Assembly: GCA_964354495.1 (NCBI GenBank)
Contig: CAYHAA010000002.1
Span: 207,154 to 239,153, forward strand
DNA length: 32,000 nt
Reading direction: 5' to 3'
Source: an uncultured archaeon
Lineage (GTDB): Archaea > Asgardarchaeota > Thorarchaeia > Thorarchaeales > Thorarchaeaceae
The notes below the pieces were generated by a model, which saw only the letters and a list, made by a program, of their open reading frames with translations, did no database searches and was not told where the DNA came from. Below, piece by piece: positions 13,285 to 20,803 of this stretch; positions within the stretch are counted from its first letter, which is position 1, and every line of letters starts with the position of its first letter. A program made the translations under genes and the position numbers.

Positions 13285-13914
13285 TTGGCGATAACACCGA
13301 CGGAGTGCATGGACATCGAATCGTTCCTTGGCGAAGCAGCTTCATTGATAGAGAAGAAGCTCTTCGACAAAGCACTGCTGGCGCTCCAACGTGGTCTGTC
13401 AATGGACCCGAACAATCCAAAGGCTTGGGAACGTGTTGCTGTCTGCAATCTTGAAATGGGCAAACCAAAGATGGCGATTGAAGCACTCAACAATCTTGTT
13501 AGAATACAGCCTAATTCCCAGTCAGGTTGGGCGGACAAGGGACTGCTACACCTGCTTCTCAATGAAACAACTGAAGGCATTGGCGCATTACAAAGGAGCG
13601 TCCGATTGAACCCCAGGCGAGTTCGAGACTGGGAACTACTTGCAACAGTTCTCATGTCTGAGGATCGCTGGGATGAGGCCTTGGAAGCCCTTGAGATTAC
13701 TATTGATCAGAATCCAAACTCAGCAATCGCGTGGTATAATCTTGCACTCTGCTATCTTTTCTTTGAGGAGTTCAAATTAGCAAGGAACGCGGCAGAGACA
13801 GCGCTCGCACTTGACCCATCTCTGGTGGACATTGCACACGATTGGTTCGATCTTGTTGACGTAGACATAATCATTGAGGACCATCCCTCGATATCAGATA
13901 TCGCAGCCAGCTAG
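13285..13914 (+). CDS. Small tetratricopeptide-repeat protein
   Basis: Consecutive TPRs (DPNNPKAWERVA, QPNSQSGWADKG, NPRRVRDWELLA, NPNSAIAWYNLA). The start is TTG 13285 or ATG 13309; both have GGAG upstream. Confidence 0.88.
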   Translation: MAITPTECMDIESFLGEAASLIEKKLFDKALLALQRGLSMDPNNPKAWERVAVCNLEMGKPKMAIEALNNLVRIQPNSQSGWADKGLLHLLLNETTEGIGALQRSVRLNPRRVRDWELLATVLMSEDRWDEALEALEITIDQNPNSAIAWYNLALCYLFFEEFKLARNAAETALALDPSLVDIAHDWFDLVDVDIIIEDHPSISDIAAS

Positions 13915-14127
13915 ATATTGCCCTATTCGTCGTTGCTCTACACTTTTCATGAGAAGAATTCTGCAATACAGAATTCGGGATGACTTGAAGAAATATCCTC
14001 TCTCAGTATATTTTCAAGGCTGCCATTCTTATCGTGATGAATTGGGATATACATGACACAATCTTTGAAAAGGGAGAAACGACACACAGAAGGTACTTAA
14101 GACATCCACAAAAGAGCCATACTAGAT

Positions 14128-14132
14128 GGAGG
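14128..14132 (+). promoter_or_regulatory. Shine-Dalgarno-like GGAGG for the large helical protein
   Basis: GGAGG lies 9 nt before the in-frame TTG at 14142. The same 9-nt spacing occurs for GGAG before the next two genes (16832-16835, 18232-18235). Confidence 0.55.
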
Positions 14133-14141
14133 CACGTCATT

Positions 14142-16832
14142 TTGGACAGTCACAGCTGGAGACGCGAACTTGACAAATTCGCGGAACTAAAGGGTATCTT
14201 GGTGTCGGTCAATCCGGCAATGGAAGAACAAGCAAATAGACATGTTCGAAACCTCTATGACATTTTTGCTCAGCTAAGCAAGCTTGAGAACGATTTAGCA
14301 ACAGCAGGAATGCTAAAGAAACGGAAGGTCCAAGCTGAGGTCGAAAAGACCCGAAGTGAGCTCGAAGACTCGTTCATGAAGGCAATTCGGGACTTCGCAG
14401 AGTACTTCCGAAAAGAACATAGAGATGTTATATCCATCCTTCCCAAGATTCAGGCCATAAAACCCGCAGAAGCAAAGTCCATCTCAACTATCAATTTCCC
14501 AGGAATCGGTGCAGGAGACCTGAAGGACTTCGAAGTGCTGCTCGAGTTCGCCAAGTCTTTCTCGAAGCTATACCTTGTAGTCCATCAGGAAGTTGCACGT
14601 GAAGTCAAGTCAACGCTGGATGAGAATAAGGCAACTGTCGATACATATGAGAGGCACATTACTATTGACAAGAGTGAGGTCTCGACGACTGTAGCAGACA
14701 ATGATGTTGTCGGTCTCTCGCTCCGCGATCTAATTCTTCTGAACGACAAGCTCACAGAGGACAGGAAATATCTTGACGCCCGAAAGGACGAAGTCAGCAG
14801 ACTACTTGGTTCATCGCTGGTAAGTGATACGGAATCACTACAGGCATCCGTCGAAACAGCTGCAAGATTAGGTCTGGACCTGCCAATCGAATTCTCACAG
14901 CAGCTCAGATTGATTGCCAGAGATGCCAGCAAAGCAGCTGACCTGACCACACTTGTTGCTCTCGAGAATCAACTTCATACCTCGAAAGTGAAAATGGCTA
15001 ATGTCCTAAGAGACAAGATTATCAACGTCAAGCACGAGGTCACACAGAAAATCGTCGAGGGCGGAATACCAACGACCTCGGAGATTATTCCGAGCCCTCC
15101 CACAGTCAGTGTCGAGGGAGAAGGAATTGCGGGACTCTTATCGAACTACCAACGAATGGTCGAGTGGGAAGGCCAAGTAAGAATCGCTCTTAGAGAACGG
15201 CTGTTTGAATTGCTCGACGACGTCGAAAAGGCGTCTGAAGTCCCAAAGGAGACCGGAATCAAAGATATAGTCACCGTGAGGCAGTTCATTGCAGAGTCAA
15301 AGGGTGTTCTGAAGAGTGCAGATATTGATGAGATGATCAGAATCTATCTCAAAGCTAAGGTCATGGACGACCAGTATCGAAAGGCAATCATAGATAGCAT
15401 CAGAGCGTATCTCACTCGATTCAATGAGTTGGCCACCTCAGCCGATAGAGTACTGGACCACGCGCAACTCAGTAAGAAGGCACCTAAGGTCGAAGAACTG
15501 GAAGGTGGAATCACGTATCTACTCGAGTCCCTTCTCACCTTGAGGGGAGCTGTAGAGAGCGGTGTGGCAACATTTAGAGACGCGTGTCAACAAGAGATTG
15601 ATGCAATCATACAGGATCTTCAGACAATAAAGCCAGCCTATGCTGAAATCTTCATGCCTATTATTGTTGATCTAGATGAGGGGTCCGCACGAATTCAAAA
15701 GATGGATGACTTTTCAGAGATCAAATCCGAGATGCGCTCAATCAAAGATACGATGCTTGCAAAAGCAAAAGATTCCTTGGAGAATCTCCGATACAGGCTT
15801 GGTGTGAAGATACGACTTGCAGCAGCAAAACTGATGGGTGCCGGGGTAGATATTCCTGCAGAGGTCCACGGAGCCATTAGTGAACTGAACAATGTCACTG
15901 TCGCCGCAGACACCGTCTTCGCTCTTCCTGCCGTTGCAAGAAAGATGATTGAGATCTACGAAAAGAAGATCTCGTCCAATGTCATCAACAGATTGAGCAA
16001 AGAGGTAGATGCACTTTACACATCACTTGATAGAGCGAAGAGCATTGGCGTGAAAGTGGACAAGGAGCTGAAGATGCTTCAGGAGCTCAAAGACAAACCA
16101 CCATCAGAGCTTGAAGAGGCTGCCGATGCATTTGACAAGCTCATGGGTTTGACCACATCACCTCAGGTCCACAAGAAGATTCGAGAAAGAGTCAATGAGG
16201 CTTACGTTCAGATCAAGAGTGCTGTGGCTCTCTTTGAGGACCAGGGGATGTCAGAATTCGTTGAGAGGCTGAAGGTTCTCATAGAGCAAGTCCCGGCGAG
16301 GCTCGATAAGGAATCTCCTCATGTAAATGATGCGCTTGATGTCTGTCTCACTCTAGCCAATATTCAGGAAGAGATGCTTACAGTCATTAAGAACATGGCA
16401 AATATGAGCCACGACAATTATGAACGGGAACTGAGAGCGAAGAGCCAATACTACTCCACAATCGTGAGGGTGGTCGAAAACCATCAAAACGATTTCAGTA
16501 AAGTTGTTTTCAATATCAAGAAGATGAAGGAGCTTGAGTCCACACTCAATGTGTTATCAAACCTTGATGAGGCCATAGCGTGCTTCCATGAGCTAGAGGA
16601 AATGCGAAAGCAATGGCTCGAGAAAGCTGTCGCAATGGACGATTGGCATAAATCCCTCAGGATGTTCATGACAGGTTTCAGCCCGGCTGCCAAACCTGAT
16701 GAGCGGGACAAGTTCATCGAGGAGGCAACTAGGAAGGTCAAGGAAACGTACTCCAGAGAGGATATCAGTTCTTATCTGAGCTGGGCTATCAAAGAAAGTG
16801 CACAAGCACTAGTTGGTAAGAGAAAATCATAG
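14142..16832 (+). CDS. Large (~896 aa) alpha-helical repeat/coiled-coil protein of unknown function
   Basis: Long ORF (the track starts at GTG 14034; I prefer TTG 14142 from the SD). It is L/E/K/A/I/D-rich and amphipathic-helical throughout, with no TM segment and no Walker A motif. Modules of about 61-72 aa are visible by eye. Confidence 0.8.
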   Translation: MDSHSWRRELDKFAELKGILVSVNPAMEEQANRHVRNLYDIFAQLSKLENDLATAGMLKKRKVQAEVEKTRSELEDSFMKAIRDFAEYFRKEHRDVISILPKIQAIKPAEAKSISTINFPGIGAGDLKDFEVLLEFAKSFSKLYLVVHQEVAREVKSTLDENKATVDTYERHITIDKSEVSTTVADNDVVGLSLRDLILLNDKLTEDRKYLDARKDEVSRLLGSSLVSDTESLQASVETAARLGLDLPIEFSQQLRLIARDASKAADLTTLVALENQLHTSKVKMANVLRDKIINVKHEVTQKIVEGGIPTTSEIIPSPPTVSVEGEGIAGLLSNYQRMVEWEGQVRIALRERLFELLDDVEKASEVPKETGIKDIVTVRQFIAESKGVLKSADIDEMIRIYLKAKVMDDQYRKAIIDSIRAYLTRFNELATSADRVLDHAQLSKKAPKVEELEGGITYLLESLLTLRGAVESGVATFRDACQQEIDAIIQDLQTIKPAYAEIFMPIIVDLDEGSARIQKMDDFSEIKSEMRSIKDTMLAKAKDSLENLRYRLGVKIRLAAAKLMGAGVDIPAEVHGAISELNNVTVAADTVFALPAVARKMIEIYEKKISSNVINRLSKEVDALYTSLDRAKSIGVKVDKELKMLQELKDKPPSELEEAADAFDKLMGLTTSPQVHKKIRERVNEAYVQIKSAVALFEDQGMSEFVERLKVLIEQVPARLDKESPHVNDALDVCLTLANIQEEMLTVIKNMANMSHDNYERELRAKSQYYSTIVRVVENHQNDFSKVVFNIKKMKELESTLNVLSNLDEAIACFHELEEMRKQWLEKAVAMDDWHKSLRMFMTGFSPAAKPDERDKFIEEATRKVKETYSREDISSYLSWAIKESAQALVGKRKS

Positions 16833-16844
16833 GAGCGTAAATTC

Positions 16845-18230
16845 ATGTCAGGCGCCAAGACTTCCACAGACACTGATGATACAACAAAGTCTGCAGAAAT
16901 GTTCGCAATCGGGATTGGTGAGTGTGGTTCTAATATTGTAGGATCGTACCTCCAGACCAGCCGCGACAATAAGCTGCCATCTCGTGTTCGTGGTTACCTT
17001 TTGATCAACACCGACCGAGCAGACCTCACGAAGGTACGGCAAAAATACCGAATTCCCAAGGAGAACACCCTTCTATATGGAGCATCAGAAATTGGTGTAG
17101 GTGGTCGCTTCATGGATGGATACAATGCAATCATGGAGTCCAAGGACATCATATTCGACCAACTTGCCAACTTGGGCTTTGAGGGAGTCTCGGGATTCTG
17201 TATCTTTACATCCTTAGGTGGTGGTACAGGCTGCGGCGGTACCCCTGCACTGATTGAACTACTCAAGCAGAGGTTCCAAGAGGAAGAGGGCAGACGTATC
17301 TTTGTTTATGTTGTTGGTATTCTTCCCTTCGAAGGGCAGTCAAGTGAAGCTCTGAACTCCATTTGGGCGGTCTCAAAGCTGCTTCGTGCCCAGCTTCAAG
17401 AGCGTGGCGCAGACCTCACGATCTTGCTGTCGAACAGGACTATGCTCAAGCGTATCCTTCAGTGGAGGAAGGGCGATACTGTCGACTACCTACGGAAGGA
17501 ACTTGCAGTTGACATAGCAGACATCGACTCCATTGAGAGTATGGTTCCCTCGACACTCGATGAAGGCAGTGCTGCTGAGACTCGAACTGAACAAGCTTTC
17601 GTAGAACTTGTCAACCCACTCGCTCTTGATGTTGTTGAAGCAATGCTATCACCCGGTGTCTGGGAGAGCGCAAAGGATGTCTTTCCAACCACTGATCTAG
17701 CAGACTACGCCCGAAAACTTGACCCGGTAGTTGTTCCAGCTCTGTACACCGATATTGGTCTCATCCCTGATGCAGGCAGTATGCCAAAACAACTTAGAAC
17801 GATGATTGACTATGCAGTGAAGGAATGTAGTTATGCTGACGTCGGGGAGGAGCCCAACGCAGAGAGTGTATACTATGTACTGTCGGGTCCGACCCACATA
17901 GCAAAAGCTGAGTACGGGATGCATCTCAAAGAAGCTCTGGAAAAATTCATCGCACCAGGAGCCGCAATTACTCCGTGCTATGTGCAATACCATATTCCTG
18001 ATGCAAAGACAAACTTGCTCCTTCTTCTCGGTCTGCCAAAGATACCAGAACTAGTCACTATCATCAATGAAGCCACGCAGCTGGTGAACCTTCATAGTGG
18101 TGCATCGCCGTTGAAACAAGGCTGGTTCATGCGGTCCAAAGGAACATCAAGAAAAGAGTTGGTCGATGCAATAAATGACTTCCGTGAGCTATTCAGCTAC
18201 TACATGAGTCCGGGAGAATCAATAGAGTAG
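16845..18230 (+). CDS. Tubulin/FtsZ superfamily GTPase (divergent, CetZ/FtsZ3-like with tubulin-like features)
   Basis: T1 IGIGECGSNI (aa 22-31), LINTDRADL, GVGG, signature SLGGGTGCGGTP (aa 123-134), VGILPF, LTILLSN (N197), H7 VNPL (N257), T7 TTDLADY (D284, D287) and a C-terminal LLLLLGLPKIPEL strand/helix. Confidence 0.92.
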   Translation: MSGAKTSTDTDDTTKSAEMFAIGIGECGSNIVGSYLQTSRDNKLPSRVRGYLLINTDRADLTKVRQKYRIPKENTLLYGASEIGVGGRFMDGYNAIMESKDIIFDQLANLGFEGVSGFCIFTSLGGGTGCGGTPALIELLKQRFQEEEGRRIFVYVVGILPFEGQSSEALNSIWAVSKLLRAQLQERGADLTILLSNRTMLKRILQWRKGDTVDYLRKELAVDIADIDSIESMVPSTLDEGSAAETRTEQAFVELVNPLALDVVEAMLSPGVWESAKDVFPTTDLADYARKLDPVVVPALYTDIGLIPDAGSMPKQLRTMIDYAVKECSYADVGEEPNAESVYYVLSGPTHIAKAEYGMHLKEALEKFIAPGAAITPCYVQYHIPDAKTNLLLLLGLPKIPELVTIINEATQLVNLHSGASPLKQGWFMRSKGTSRKELVDAINDFRELFSYYMSPGESIE

Positions 18231-18244
18231 TGGAGTGTGTCTAG

Positions 18245-19309
18245 TTGTCAGATGACGCTTCTTTCCATTCCGCGGACCTGATTGACAGATTGCTGCTCAT
18301 TGTGACGCTAAACTCCACATTGATCCATTTCCTCCTGAGCACCCAGGTTGAGGAGACCGTAGATCCGGATAGAGTTGATTCTCTTACACAGGGACTGCTG
18401 AGAACAAGAAAATGGATGGAAGAAGCCACAACAATGAAGGGCATTCCTCCTTCAACTCAAAATATTCTCAGTCTGATCGTCAAACGTCTGGCCCAGATTG
18501 AAAGTCTATTACCAAAGTTATCCAGTAAGGCAAAGGAGGCAGAGATAACCCCGGCACATGAGATTCTGTCCCTCCTTGATTCAGGACACGAAACAAGTCG
18601 CGCTGAGCAGCTTGAGCCAACTCAGATTCAGGGTACTGAAACTGAGCTAGTTCCACCCGCAGTACAAGTACCTGTGAAGCCCCTAGAGGCATACAAAAAG
18701 GTCGACGTGGAAGATGATATGTTTGGTCTCATTGGGCAGACTCAACGCCTGATTCAACAATACAGTCAGAGAGAGCACGTTCTTCTGCCAACTTTTTGGT
18801 TGGAGGTTTTGAGGGAGGTCCACAAGTATAAGTCGGATTCACCCTATTTGGGTGATGTTATTGAACAACCGTCCCGAATCCTGGCAAGAATCATAAGGGG
18901 ATTATTGACAGAGGCTCCAGGTGCTAGACTGCTGCAGGAACTTATGAAGAACCGTGAGCAGGAGAGCTATGTCAGTAGTTCGGAGATTGAGAGAATCGAA
19001 CGAGCAGTCGCCAAGTATTTTGCAGGTGTGGAGGGAGTCCTGAAGGAGGACAAGGTGAATTCCAAGGAGAAGATTCTAGAAGCTCAGACCGCATTTGATG
19101 GATTTGGATGGGGCGGCCCAGATCTTGAGAAGCGTCTGATTAAGAGACTGAATCAAGAATGCGAGGAGGCTCTTCATAATGCTGAATCTGCAACGGATGA
19201 GGCAAGAAAGGTCATCTACGCTGAAGTGACCAAAATGCTATGTAAGCTCCAGCATGCAATTCTGGCCGAAGCTCGACTTCAAGAGATGTTCACGCAAATG
19301 AAACCATAG
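18245..19309 (+). CDS. Hypothetical alpha-helical protein (354 aa), third gene of the tubulin-like operon
   Basis: TTG start 14 nt after the tubulin-like stop, with GGAG 9 nt upstream. It has two helical regions joined by a P/E/Q-rich linker. I recognise no family motif. Confidence 0.75.
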   Translation: MSDDASFHSADLIDRLLLIVTLNSTLIHFLLSTQVEETVDPDRVDSLTQGLLRTRKWMEEATTMKGIPPSTQNILSLIVKRLAQIESLLPKLSSKAKEAEITPAHEILSLLDSGHETSRAEQLEPTQIQGTETELVPPAVQVPVKPLEAYKKVDVEDDMFGLIGQTQRLIQQYSQREHVLLPTFWLEVLREVHKYKSDSPYLGDVIEQPSRILARIIRGLLTEAPGARLLQELMKNREQESYVSSSEIERIERAVAKYFAGVEGVLKEDKVNSKEKILEAQTAFDGFGWGGPDLEKRLIKRLNQECEEALHNAESATDEARKVIYAEVTKMLCKLQHAILAEARLQEMFTQMKP

Positions 19310-19350
19310 ACACGAAAACAGTCAGTTCTGATGGCTTGATTGCACAGCTC

Positions 19351-19356
19351 ATATAA
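19351..19356 (+). promoter_or_regulatory. Possible TATA box (ATATAA) for the acyl-CoA synthetase gene
   Basis: AT-rich hexamer about 45 nt upstream of ATG 19397 in an 87-bp gap. Confidence 0.3.
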
Positions 19357-19396
19357 GCAATACCGCACCTGAGATTGACATGCACGAGGGAGAGAT

Positions 19397-20803
19397 ATGA
19401 CCGGCATAAGAACCATGCTGAGCCCGAAAACGACAGCTGTTGTGGGAGTATCAACATCAAATCCCTTCTCGCCTGGTAATGTCATCTTTAGAAAACTAGC
19501 CTTCGAAAACGGTCTCCGTACATACCCAATCAATCCGAAGGGGGGTCTTGTCGAAGGAGTTCAGGTTTACAAGTCAATCGCGGAAGCCCCAGATGGCATC
19601 GATCTCGCTGTCATTTCTATACCTGCAGAGTATGTGCCAAAGACATTGACAGAATGCGGCGAGAAAGGCATCAAGGCAGTCATCGTTGTTTCCGGTGGTT
19701 TTGCTGAGATTGGAGGAGAAGGAGTAGATCTACAGTCAAAGATTGTGGCGATTGCAGATGAATACCATATCTCCATGGTTGGGCCAAACTGCATCGGTGT
19801 CTATGTTCCAGATCTGCTGGATACATTCTTCCTCCCTTCAGAACGTGTTGCTCGGCCTCGAAAGGGGCACGCTGTGATTATCTCACAGAGCGGGGGTTGG
19901 CTCGTTGAGAGGCTAGAGGAGTTCGCAGCGAGAAAAGTCGGTATTGCAGCGGCAGTCTCTATCGGAAACCAAGCTCAGATCAAGGTAACTGACTTCATTG
20001 AGTACTTTGGCAACGATGATGATGTGAATGTAATCGTTTGCTACTTGGAAGGATTCGGAGAAGGAGGCGGACGCCGGTTCGTCAAAGCCTGCAGAAAGAT
20101 AGTGATTGAAAAACCAGTAATTGTTTTGAAGGGCGGAGAGTCAGAAGCTGGTCACAGAGCTACTCAAAGCCACACTTCATCCCTAGCCGGAAACCAGGCT
20201 GTTGCAGGAGCTGCATTCCAGCAGTATGGGCTAATCCATGCAAGGGATGAAGATGAATTGATGGCGTATGCGAAAGTCTTCTCATTCGAGCCCAAACACA
20301 TGAGGAGTAGTAGAATCGGAGCCCTGTCTGTGAGCGGAGGCCATGGGGTCCTAGCTAGTGATGAGGCCTCTCCGTATGGACTTGAATTCCCACAGTTTTC
20401 TGCGGAAGAGCAAAGTCTGATGCGAGAGGTAATGACGACCGCCTATCAGAGCATCGCATCGTTTAGAAATCCATGTGATCTCACGGGAAGTGCTTCAGAT
20501 ATCGACTTCGAAAGAGTTTTGGCCAAGATGCTCACAATTGAGAGAATAGACGCAGGTCTCCTGCTATTGCTTCCGTATGCGCCTGGTATTTCTCTTCAGA
20601 TTGGCGCGAGAATTGCCAACGTGTCAAAACAACAAGCGAAACCTGTGGTGGTATATGTGCCAGACCTAGAGAAGTACGAGGTCATCATCAGGGGATTCGA
20701 ATTGAATGGCGTTGCAGTGGCAGATACTATTGAGGAAGCAGTTCAGATGCTGAATGGTATCAGAAAGAGGACGAAGTTCTTGCAGGGCATTGGCGCCTGC
20801 TAG
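19397..20803 (+). CDS. acdA: Acetate/acyl-CoA ligase (ADP-forming), alpha subunit
   Basis: CoA-binding domain (AVVGVS, YPINPK, DLAVISIPA, SGGFAEIG, MVGPNCIG), ISQSGG, SIGNQA, YLEG, phospho-His motif QSHTSSLAG and NPCDLTG. Confidence 0.9.
   Translation: MTGIRTMLSPKTTAVVGVSTSNPFSPGNVIFRKLAFENGLRTYPINPKGGLVEGVQVYKSIAEAPDGIDLAVISIPAEYVPKTLTECGEKGIKAVIVVSGGFAEIGGEGVDLQSKIVAIADEYHISMVGPNCIGVYVPDLLDTFFLPSERVARPRKGHAVIISQSGGWLVERLEEFAARKVGIAAAVSIGNQAQIKVTDFIEYFGNDDDVNVIVCYLEGFGEGGGRRFVKACRKIVIEKPVIVLKGGESEAGHRATQSHTSSLAGNQAVAGAAFQQYGLIHARDEDELMAYAKVFSFEPKHMRSSRIGALSVSGGHGVLASDEASPYGLEFPQFSAEEQSLMREVMTTAYQSIASFRNPCDLTGSASDIDFERVLAKMLTIERIDAGLLLLLPYAPGISLQIGARIANVSKQQAKPVVVYVPDLEKYEVIIRGFELNGVAVADTIEEAVQMLNGIRKRTKFLQGIGAC

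Follow-up and report, generated by a model that had tools for sequence, protein, structure and literature searches.

A conserved three-gene operon encoding an Asg.Tub tubulin-superfamily GTPase and two helical proteins, a candidate filament module of Asgard archaea

The DNA analysed here, which we call the window, is a stretch of 32,000 nucleotides (nt) from an uncultured archaeon of the family Thorarchaeaceae (assembly GCA_964354495.1, contig CAYHAA010000002.1, positions 207,154 to 239,153), and our subject is a trio of consecutive genes on its forward strand, named A, B and C. Gene A (14142-16832, TTG start) encodes a protein of 896 amino acids (aa) that is predicted to be all-alpha-helical and lies outside named families. 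Gene B (16845-18230, ATG start) encodes a 461-aa GTPase of the tubulin/FtsZ superfamily, assigned to the CetZ-like clade Asg.Tub, and gene C (18245-19309, TTG start) encodes a 354-aa helical protein, again outside named families. The stop codon of A (16830-16832) is separated by 12 nt from the ATG of B at 16845, and that of B (18228-18230) by 14 nt from the TTG of C at 18245.

All three start codons are preceded by a Shine-Dalgarno motif that ends exactly 9 nt upstream: GGAGG at 14128-14132 for A, GGAG at 16832-16835 for B and GGAG at 18232-18235 for C. Since only 18 of the 3547 ATG, GTG or TTG triplets in the window (0.5%) have a GGAG at exactly this distance, the spacing shared by the three starts is no chance outcome. 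The unit is set apart by larger gaps, of 227 bp on its 5' side (from the end of a tetratricopeptide repeat (TPR) gene at 13914) and of 87 bp on its 3' side, the latter containing the TATA-like sequence catataagc. A first-pass annotation, made from the letters of the window, had described this layout of three co-oriented open reading frames (ORFs) with short spacers, regularly placed GGAG(G) motifs and wider flanking gaps, and every coordinate was confirmed. The reading frame of A extends upstream of the TTG at 14142, as far as a GTG at 14034. We prefer the TTG as the likely start, because most orthologues are 895-896 aa long, because the sequence TTGGA is kept in 11 genomes of the same genus, and because the sequence upstream of it has insertions and deletions that are not multiples of three and is hence non-coding.

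Using each of the three proteins as query against 201 genomes from 27 families across the Asgard phylum, we found A in 77, B in 76 and C in 78 genomes, which belonged to the same eight families. The trio genes were present in 38-39 of 43 genomes of family f1, 15-16 of 19 of f12, all four of f15, all five of f16, 9-10 of 10 of f22, and the single genome of each of f2, f6 and f8; by comparison, they were found in 0 of 21 genomes of f5, 0 of 40 of f9 and 0 of 4 of f3. The organism names of database homologues place the trio in Thor-, Heimdall/Hod-, Hermod- and Baldr-type lineages, and those of the close homologues put the present genome among the Thorarchaeota.

In nearly all carrier genomes A lies directly 5' and C directly 3' of B. 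Among 20 loci that we fetched, the order was always A-B-C on one strand, and these were the sole gene clusters that the loci had in common, the flanks varying by family. The intergenic gaps in 16 intact trios from the eight families were at most 40 nt, or the genes overlapped, with one exception. This linkage was kept even though identity between families, which was 43-62% for B, fell to 22-32% for C and to 19-30% for A, and such linkage despite divergence is strong comparative evidence pointing to a shared function. It had been asked at the outset whether homologues of A and C accompany the B gene in other genomes, and they were linked to it in every Asgard family having B.

Some loci depart from the plain arrangement. 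In one genome (G119, L019:6358-9963) a 1202-aa ORF without Pfam match sits between A and B, and in another (G037, L023:7643-15857) an insertion of 8 kb between B and C encodes HEAT-repeat, TPR, esterase-like and unknown proteins. Three f22 genomes have a second copy of B. In the two of these whose loci were fetched (G139 and G184) diverged copies of A and B, here A' (~1141 aa) and B' (~445 aa), occur without C (L015:3560-10601 and L018:218-8390). These A'-B' copies have a conserved 311-aa gene of unknown type upstream, and a gene for a 725-740-aa small GTPase of the Gtr1/RagA/Arf family adjoins B' on the opposite strand. The gene upstream of A'-B' (cluster c42) was considered as a replacement for C and was rejected, as it has no similarity to it.

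The assignment of B to the tubulin/FtsZ superfamily, already made in the first-pass annotation, was firmly supported by a match of residues 19-202 to the Pfam Tubulin domain PF00091 (72.2 bits against a cut-off of 33, E 9e-20). We examined the catalytic motifs in 24 aligned family members, which range from 29 to 87% in identity. The T1 loop has the pattern GxGECGxN (GECGSN in B), with G23, G25, E26, G28 and N30 invariant, and resembles the tubulin T1 sequence GQCGNQ. T4 reads GGGTGCG (G126-G131), is invariant and has a Cys at the S/T position; N197 of T6 is likewise invariant, as are D284 and D287 of the sequence TTDLAD, which we take to be T7 from its resemblance to the FtsZ motif NxDFAD. The family also has an acidic insertion of ~40 residues of its own between T6 and H7, which is missing from the most distant B relative, P0129. 

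This relative, 33% identical to B, is encoded at L032:7001-9149, 3' of SMC/ScpA and dihydroorotate dehydrogenase genes and with no A-like gene. A 262-aa gene lying 3' of it and overlapping it has a weakly C-like C-terminus (hhalign 17.7%, E 0.0014), which we treat as a lead only.

Comparison with the named branches of the superfamily placed B outside most of them. It scored below the cut-off of the FtsZ model TIGR00065 (35 bits against 295.2, over the N-terminal part only) and of the FtsZl1/Tubulin_2 model PF13809 (19.4 bits against 27), with no vWA or extra GTPase genes nearby, and had no match to Tubulin_C (PF03953) up to E 1, a domain that a search of the genome also failed to find. Among PDB sequences the best matches were CetZ structures (4b46 at E 3.5e-10, 3zid, and 4b45, to 2.6e-4), followed by BtubB and alpha-tubulin at E ~1e-3. 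When 1.84 billion cluster representatives were searched exhaustively, five proteins fell below E 1e-30, and the next matches, at E ~1e-10, covered the N-terminal GTPase domain only; from this drop in score the B family appears isolated. The 3.3-Mb assembly has two further PF00091 genes, which score above B, have the signature GGGTGTG and are presumably FtsZ1 and FtsZ2.

The B family itself is not new. Asg.Tub was defined as a CetZ-like Asgard clade on four sequences (OLS26264.1, PWI48967.1, KXH77455.1 and OLS30664.1), of which OLS26264.1 was placed in Asg.Tub-C; its position was unstable between CetZ and tubulins and was judged closer to CetZ, and it was surrounded by unknown genes, most of which had coiled-coil regions (Santana-Molina et al. 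2023, PMC9871819 and its supplement). A CetZ survey mentions 'non-canonical' tubulin-superfamily proteins for Asgard archaea, and our literature search found no paper characterising the B protein or the A-B-C operon. Since B is 50% identical to OLS26264.1 (our P0118, E 4.4e-144) and the C-terminus of OLS30664.1 is near-identical to its own, B is by sequence a member of Asg.Tub. The first-pass annotation had called the system undescribed, which overstates the case for B, whose clade was named in 2023 and whose coiled-coil neighbours had already been remarked on. Compared with the published account of Asg.Tub, which gave four sequences, no function and no conserved trio, B homologues are now counted in 76 of 201 genomes and eight families.

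To place B further we built a quick maximum-likelihood (ML) tree of 104 sequences, comprising the B family, its 70 nearest non-family matches, the two FtsZ proteins of this genome and eight true Asgard tubulins, identified by their PF03953 match. The B family was monophyletic (Shimodaira-Hasegawa-like approximate likelihood ratio test, SH-aLRT, 99%) and lay outside the cluster that matches CetZ1 (4b46) at E 1e-84 to 1e-113. A group with 97% SH-aLRT united it with an orphan clade and the true tubulins, and an alternative tree with the tubulins outside was not rejected by the approximately unbiased (AU) test (p = 0.27). Profile-profile comparison by hhalign gave a clearer picture: the family was most similar to CetZ (E 3.4e-32, 336 columns, both domains) and to the orphan clade (E 1.9e-30, 331 columns), followed by the Asgard tubulins (E 8e-10, 107 columns) and the FtsZ genes of this genome (E 5e-8, 162 columns). 

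By profile, then, B is nearest to CetZ and outside canonical CetZ, the tree being compatible with a place either with or apart from the tubulins, and a CetZ-like but non-canonical protein agrees with the account in PMC9871819. No CetZ-named NCBIfam model matched any of the 10 top non-family matches or P0129, for which only sub-threshold ftsZ hits were obtained, a result without bearing on whether they are CetZ. The view that B is distinct from FtsZ, CetZ, OdinTubulin and AtubAB was thus upheld in part: it is neither FtsZ1/2, nor canonical CetZ, nor an Odin or Atub tubulin, and at E 3.4e-32 it is CetZ-like.

B shares with CetZ its best PDB sequence match (4b46) and profile similarity over the GTPase and C-terminal domains; it differs in being ~70 residues longer and in its T6-H7 insertion, its T1 GECGSN and its T4 GGGTGCG, and the CetZ papers that we consulted report no A-like or C-like partners. 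OdinTubulin, AtubA/B and BtubA/B are of the same superfamily, the 97% SH-aLRT group also holds the Asgard tubulins, and BtubAB, like B, is encoded with a helical-repeat partner (BtubC). Unlike these proteins B has no Tubulin_C domain, and its profile similarity to the Asgard tubulins is limited to 107 columns; the locus moreover has a single tubulin-like gene in place of an A/B pair, and its partners are not TPR proteins. Domain and repeat scans found no TubR-like gene, centromere-like repeat array or vWA gene at the locus, which bears out the earlier remark that partners of the TubZRC or FtsZl1/2 type are missing from it; partners of the BtubABC type are missing as well.

In profile comparison the orphan tubulin-like clade, made up of P0144 with 11 further members, equals the B family in its closeness to CetZ. 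Its locus L033:191-6637 is a tight cluster with unknown genes of 358, 701 and 672 aa, and may be another uncharacterised tubulin-family module; the neighbours of P0144 showed no homology to A or C. True tubulins with a Tubulin_C domain occurred in seven of the 201 genomes (families f3, f14 and f21), all of them without the A-B-C trio, at loci that include L024:751-3334 (G148) and L025-L030, with one adjacent two-gene pair among them. A complementarity between trio and true tubulins (eight and three of 27 families, with no overlap) was considered and dismissed, as the probability of this arising by chance is about one in three.

Neither A nor C matched a Pfam or NCBIfam family above cut-off, in agreement with the earlier finding of no recognised motif in either, and PDB profile searches gave nothing below E 0.1 for either. 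Language-model atlas look-ups with the two proteins returned one usable match, the cluster of A itself, and a direct comparison found no homology between A and C. The AlphaFold2 (AF2) model of A, built on a 25-sequence alignment, consists only of helices of 30-45 residues (predicted local distance difference test, pLDDT, 85.9; predicted template modelling score, pTM, 0.39). Comparison of A with itself by hhalign revealed internal repeats of ~110 aa, residues 194-306 aligning with 329-437 (87%, E 4e-6) and with 457-566 (73%). We therefore describe A as a predicted rod of helical bundles with internal repeats; its most conserved residues (W825, W835, H836, Y878 and L879) lie near the C-terminus. 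Fold searches with A gave nothing significant, returning only generic rods and helical bundles. Pairs of a tubulin-family polymer with an elongated protein of spectrin-like bundles are known from FtsZ with EzrA and from microtubules with PRC1/MAP65/Ase1; A has no sequence similarity to EzrA, PRC1 or MAP65, and its likeness to them is architectural only.

In the AF2 model of C (pLDDT 80), residues 5-111 form a three-helix bundle, residues 113-143 a disordered linker and residues 150-354 a helical domain that is mostly above pLDDT 90. The invariant residues are D158, P182, P225, L229, G290, E295, R297 and K353, the last of these within the MKP motif with which the protein ends. The first helix is hydrophobic, with a Kyte-Doolittle maximum over 19 residues of 1.59 at residues 12-31, and this N-terminal maximum reaches 2.24 in the f22 orthologues. 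Fold searches with C (PDB, VIA-wide, AlphaFold database clusters and atlas) returned its own family and generic bundles, and were dominated by the N-terminal bundle, so that they barely probed the C-terminal domain.

Upstream of A, a block of ~93 nt (14049-14141, forward strand), which includes the GGAGG at 14128-14132, is near-invariant across the 11 genomes of the genus; the remaining intergenic sequence is variable. Because the indels in the 11-genome alignment are not multiples of three, the block is non-coding, and it probably consists of a promoter and a regulated 5' leader. It showed neither a conserved RNA structure nor covariation, and an Rfam scan found no match in the leader or the window. 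A small ORF in the leader was considered and rejected, since its ATG is missing in one genome and indels shift its frame.

A search of RNA libraries with the whole operon gave none, and with gene B alone as query two metatranscriptome libraries contained part of B. Both were compared over 13500-20000. In the first, contigs 90-95% identical to the window covered parts of A and most of B, and a 151-nt contig (18138-18288) spanned the B-C junction; in the second, a 213-nt contig within B was 99% identical. These contigs are weakly suggestive of expression and of co-transcription of B and C, being compatible with both and proving neither, and DNA carry-over into either library is not excluded.

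Taken together, we think it somewhat more probable than otherwise that the trio is a vertically inherited, Asgard-restricted module in which B forms a filament, A serves as scaffold and C as adaptor or tether. Vertical descent fits the B tree, which groups by genome family, and the differing flanks. Most likely, B would bind GTP and form protofilaments by head-to-tail assembly, in which, as for FtsZ, CetZ and tubulin, the acidic T7 residues of one subunit would trigger hydrolysis in its neighbour. A would most likely be a scaffold, cross-linker or spacer for B filaments, and the conserved C-terminal helical domain of C an adaptor to the polymer or to A, while the hydrophobic N-terminal helix of C and its flexible linker would anchor the assembly, perhaps at the membrane. 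Transcription of the trio would start at a promoter within the leader, and the evenly spaced Shine-Dalgarno sites would co-ordinate the amounts of A, B and C. As the genome also has two FtsZ genes, the cellular role would be in shape, scaffolding or membrane remodelling rather than in cytokinesis. A bolder version, in which the trio is a new Asgard cytoskeleton with a polymer intermediate between CetZ and tubulin, a spectrin/MAP65-like rod (A) that would cross-link or space the filaments and a membrane-tethering adaptor (C), each the first member of a new protein family, seems to us rather doubtful; if true, the trio would be a prokaryotic forerunner of the eukaryotic logic of filament plus microtubule-associated protein, duplicated in the Heimdall/Hod-like family f22.

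Several points weigh against the filament module. We infer the polymerisation of B and the binding of A and C to it, and the acidic T6-H7 insertion and the T4 Cys of B may bear on assembly. The comparisons of A with PRC1 (4l3i), MAP65 and EzrA (4uxv) were non-significant (E 0.26-0.3 with TM 0.21, and overall E 0.04-0.3 with TM by query not above 0.2), and matches as weak as these are typical of any helical rod. The N-terminal helix of C is borderline as a transmembrane segment here (Kyte-Doolittle 1.59), AF2 places it in a soluble three-helix bundle, and orthologues of families f15 and f8 lack the hydrophobic segment. The A'-B' copies of f22 indicate that C is not obligatory for every A-B pair. 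Finally, the RNA-library contigs are short, come from relatives (those 90-95% identical, in one library) and show neither strand nor transcript ends.

It could also be that B does not polymerise at all and acts as a GTPase switch, monomeric or dimeric, that regulates a complex built by A and C, the tubulin fold then serving in signalling and not as a cytoskeleton. The family-specific features of B (the T4 Cys, the T1 Glu and the ~40-aa insertion before H7) would suit such a protein, its assembly is something we infer, and A is of sufficient size to be the main structural component. D284 and D287 are however invariant across the family; in known tubulin-family polymers the T7 acidic residues act in trans on the GTP of the neighbouring subunit, and to our knowledge the characterised superfamily members that keep them (FtsZ, CetZ, TubZ, PhuZ and tubulin) polymerise. 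The switch therefore fits poorly with the invariant T7 residues, and we regard it as unlikely. The same proteins might instead be accessories of the FtsZ divisome, with B as a third ring protein, A as an EzrA-like regulator and C as a tether of the SepF/ZipA type, a proposal encouraged by a weak fold match of A (E 0.30) to the spectrin-like regulator of FtsZ, EzrA (4uxv), and by the hydrophobic helix and flexible linker of C, an order also found in some FtsZ membrane tethers. Yet the EzrA match is non-significant, the operon lies away from ftsZ, sepF and translation genes in 20 of 20 loci, and the group nearest to B is CetZ, the characterised members of which have a function in cell shape and not in division (PMC9856176). 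Since it was not found in f5, f9 and f3, the trio does not appear to be a core division component of the phylum, and its patchy distribution together with the two FtsZ genes makes a core division role improbable; a divisome accessory thus strikes us as quite unlikely.

TubZ and PhuZ, too, are divergent members of the tubulin family whose genes lie in small operons beside those of lineage-specific partners, and the trio might by analogy be a type III (TubZ/PhuZ-like) DNA-segregation or mobile-element system. Against this, Pfam and NCBIfam revealed no helix-turn-helix or other DNA-binding domain in A or C, no iterated centromere-like repeats lie in or beside the operon, and there is no integrase or plasmid gene nearby. 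The operon is moreover single-copy, chromosomal and placed between metabolic genes; its G+C content equals that of its surroundings and is uniform across the window, so that the locus looks native, and the flanks vary by family while the B tree groups by genome family. We consider a segregation or mobile system very improbable, and return to the module of filament, scaffold and adaptor as the reading we favour.

The A-B-C trio is what is added to the earlier description of Asg.Tub (PMC9871819). New in comparison with that work are the phylum-wide count of the trio, the predicted architectures of A and C, the repeats of A, the hydrophobic N-terminus of C, the A'-B' paralogues of f22, the conserved leader, the profile and AU tests, and the RNA-library contigs. 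Studies of the Asgard cytoskeleton have so far dealt only with actins, FtsZs and true tubulins (OdinTubulin and AtubAB), and the module would be a third Asgard tubulin-family system, with partners in no known family; it was not found in f5 and f9, among the best-sampled families searched. Should A, B and C assemble, they would amount to a new and tractable filament system, with two new classes among the proteins that bind the tubulin family, and the genes are small enough for direct in vitro work.

In this genome the trio is preceded by genes for a TPR protein, a molybdopterin-oxidoreductase-like protein, an amino-acid kinase and an enoyl-CoA hydratase, and followed by those for an ADP-forming acyl-CoA-synthetase-like protein and an FMN dehydrogenase. 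The TPR gene beside the operon (13285-13914, 209 aa) recurs only within family f1. The acyl-CoA-synthetase-like gene (19397-20803) follows C on the same strand in the f1 and f16 loci, and with no long T-run terminator between C and this gene, read-through into it is possible.

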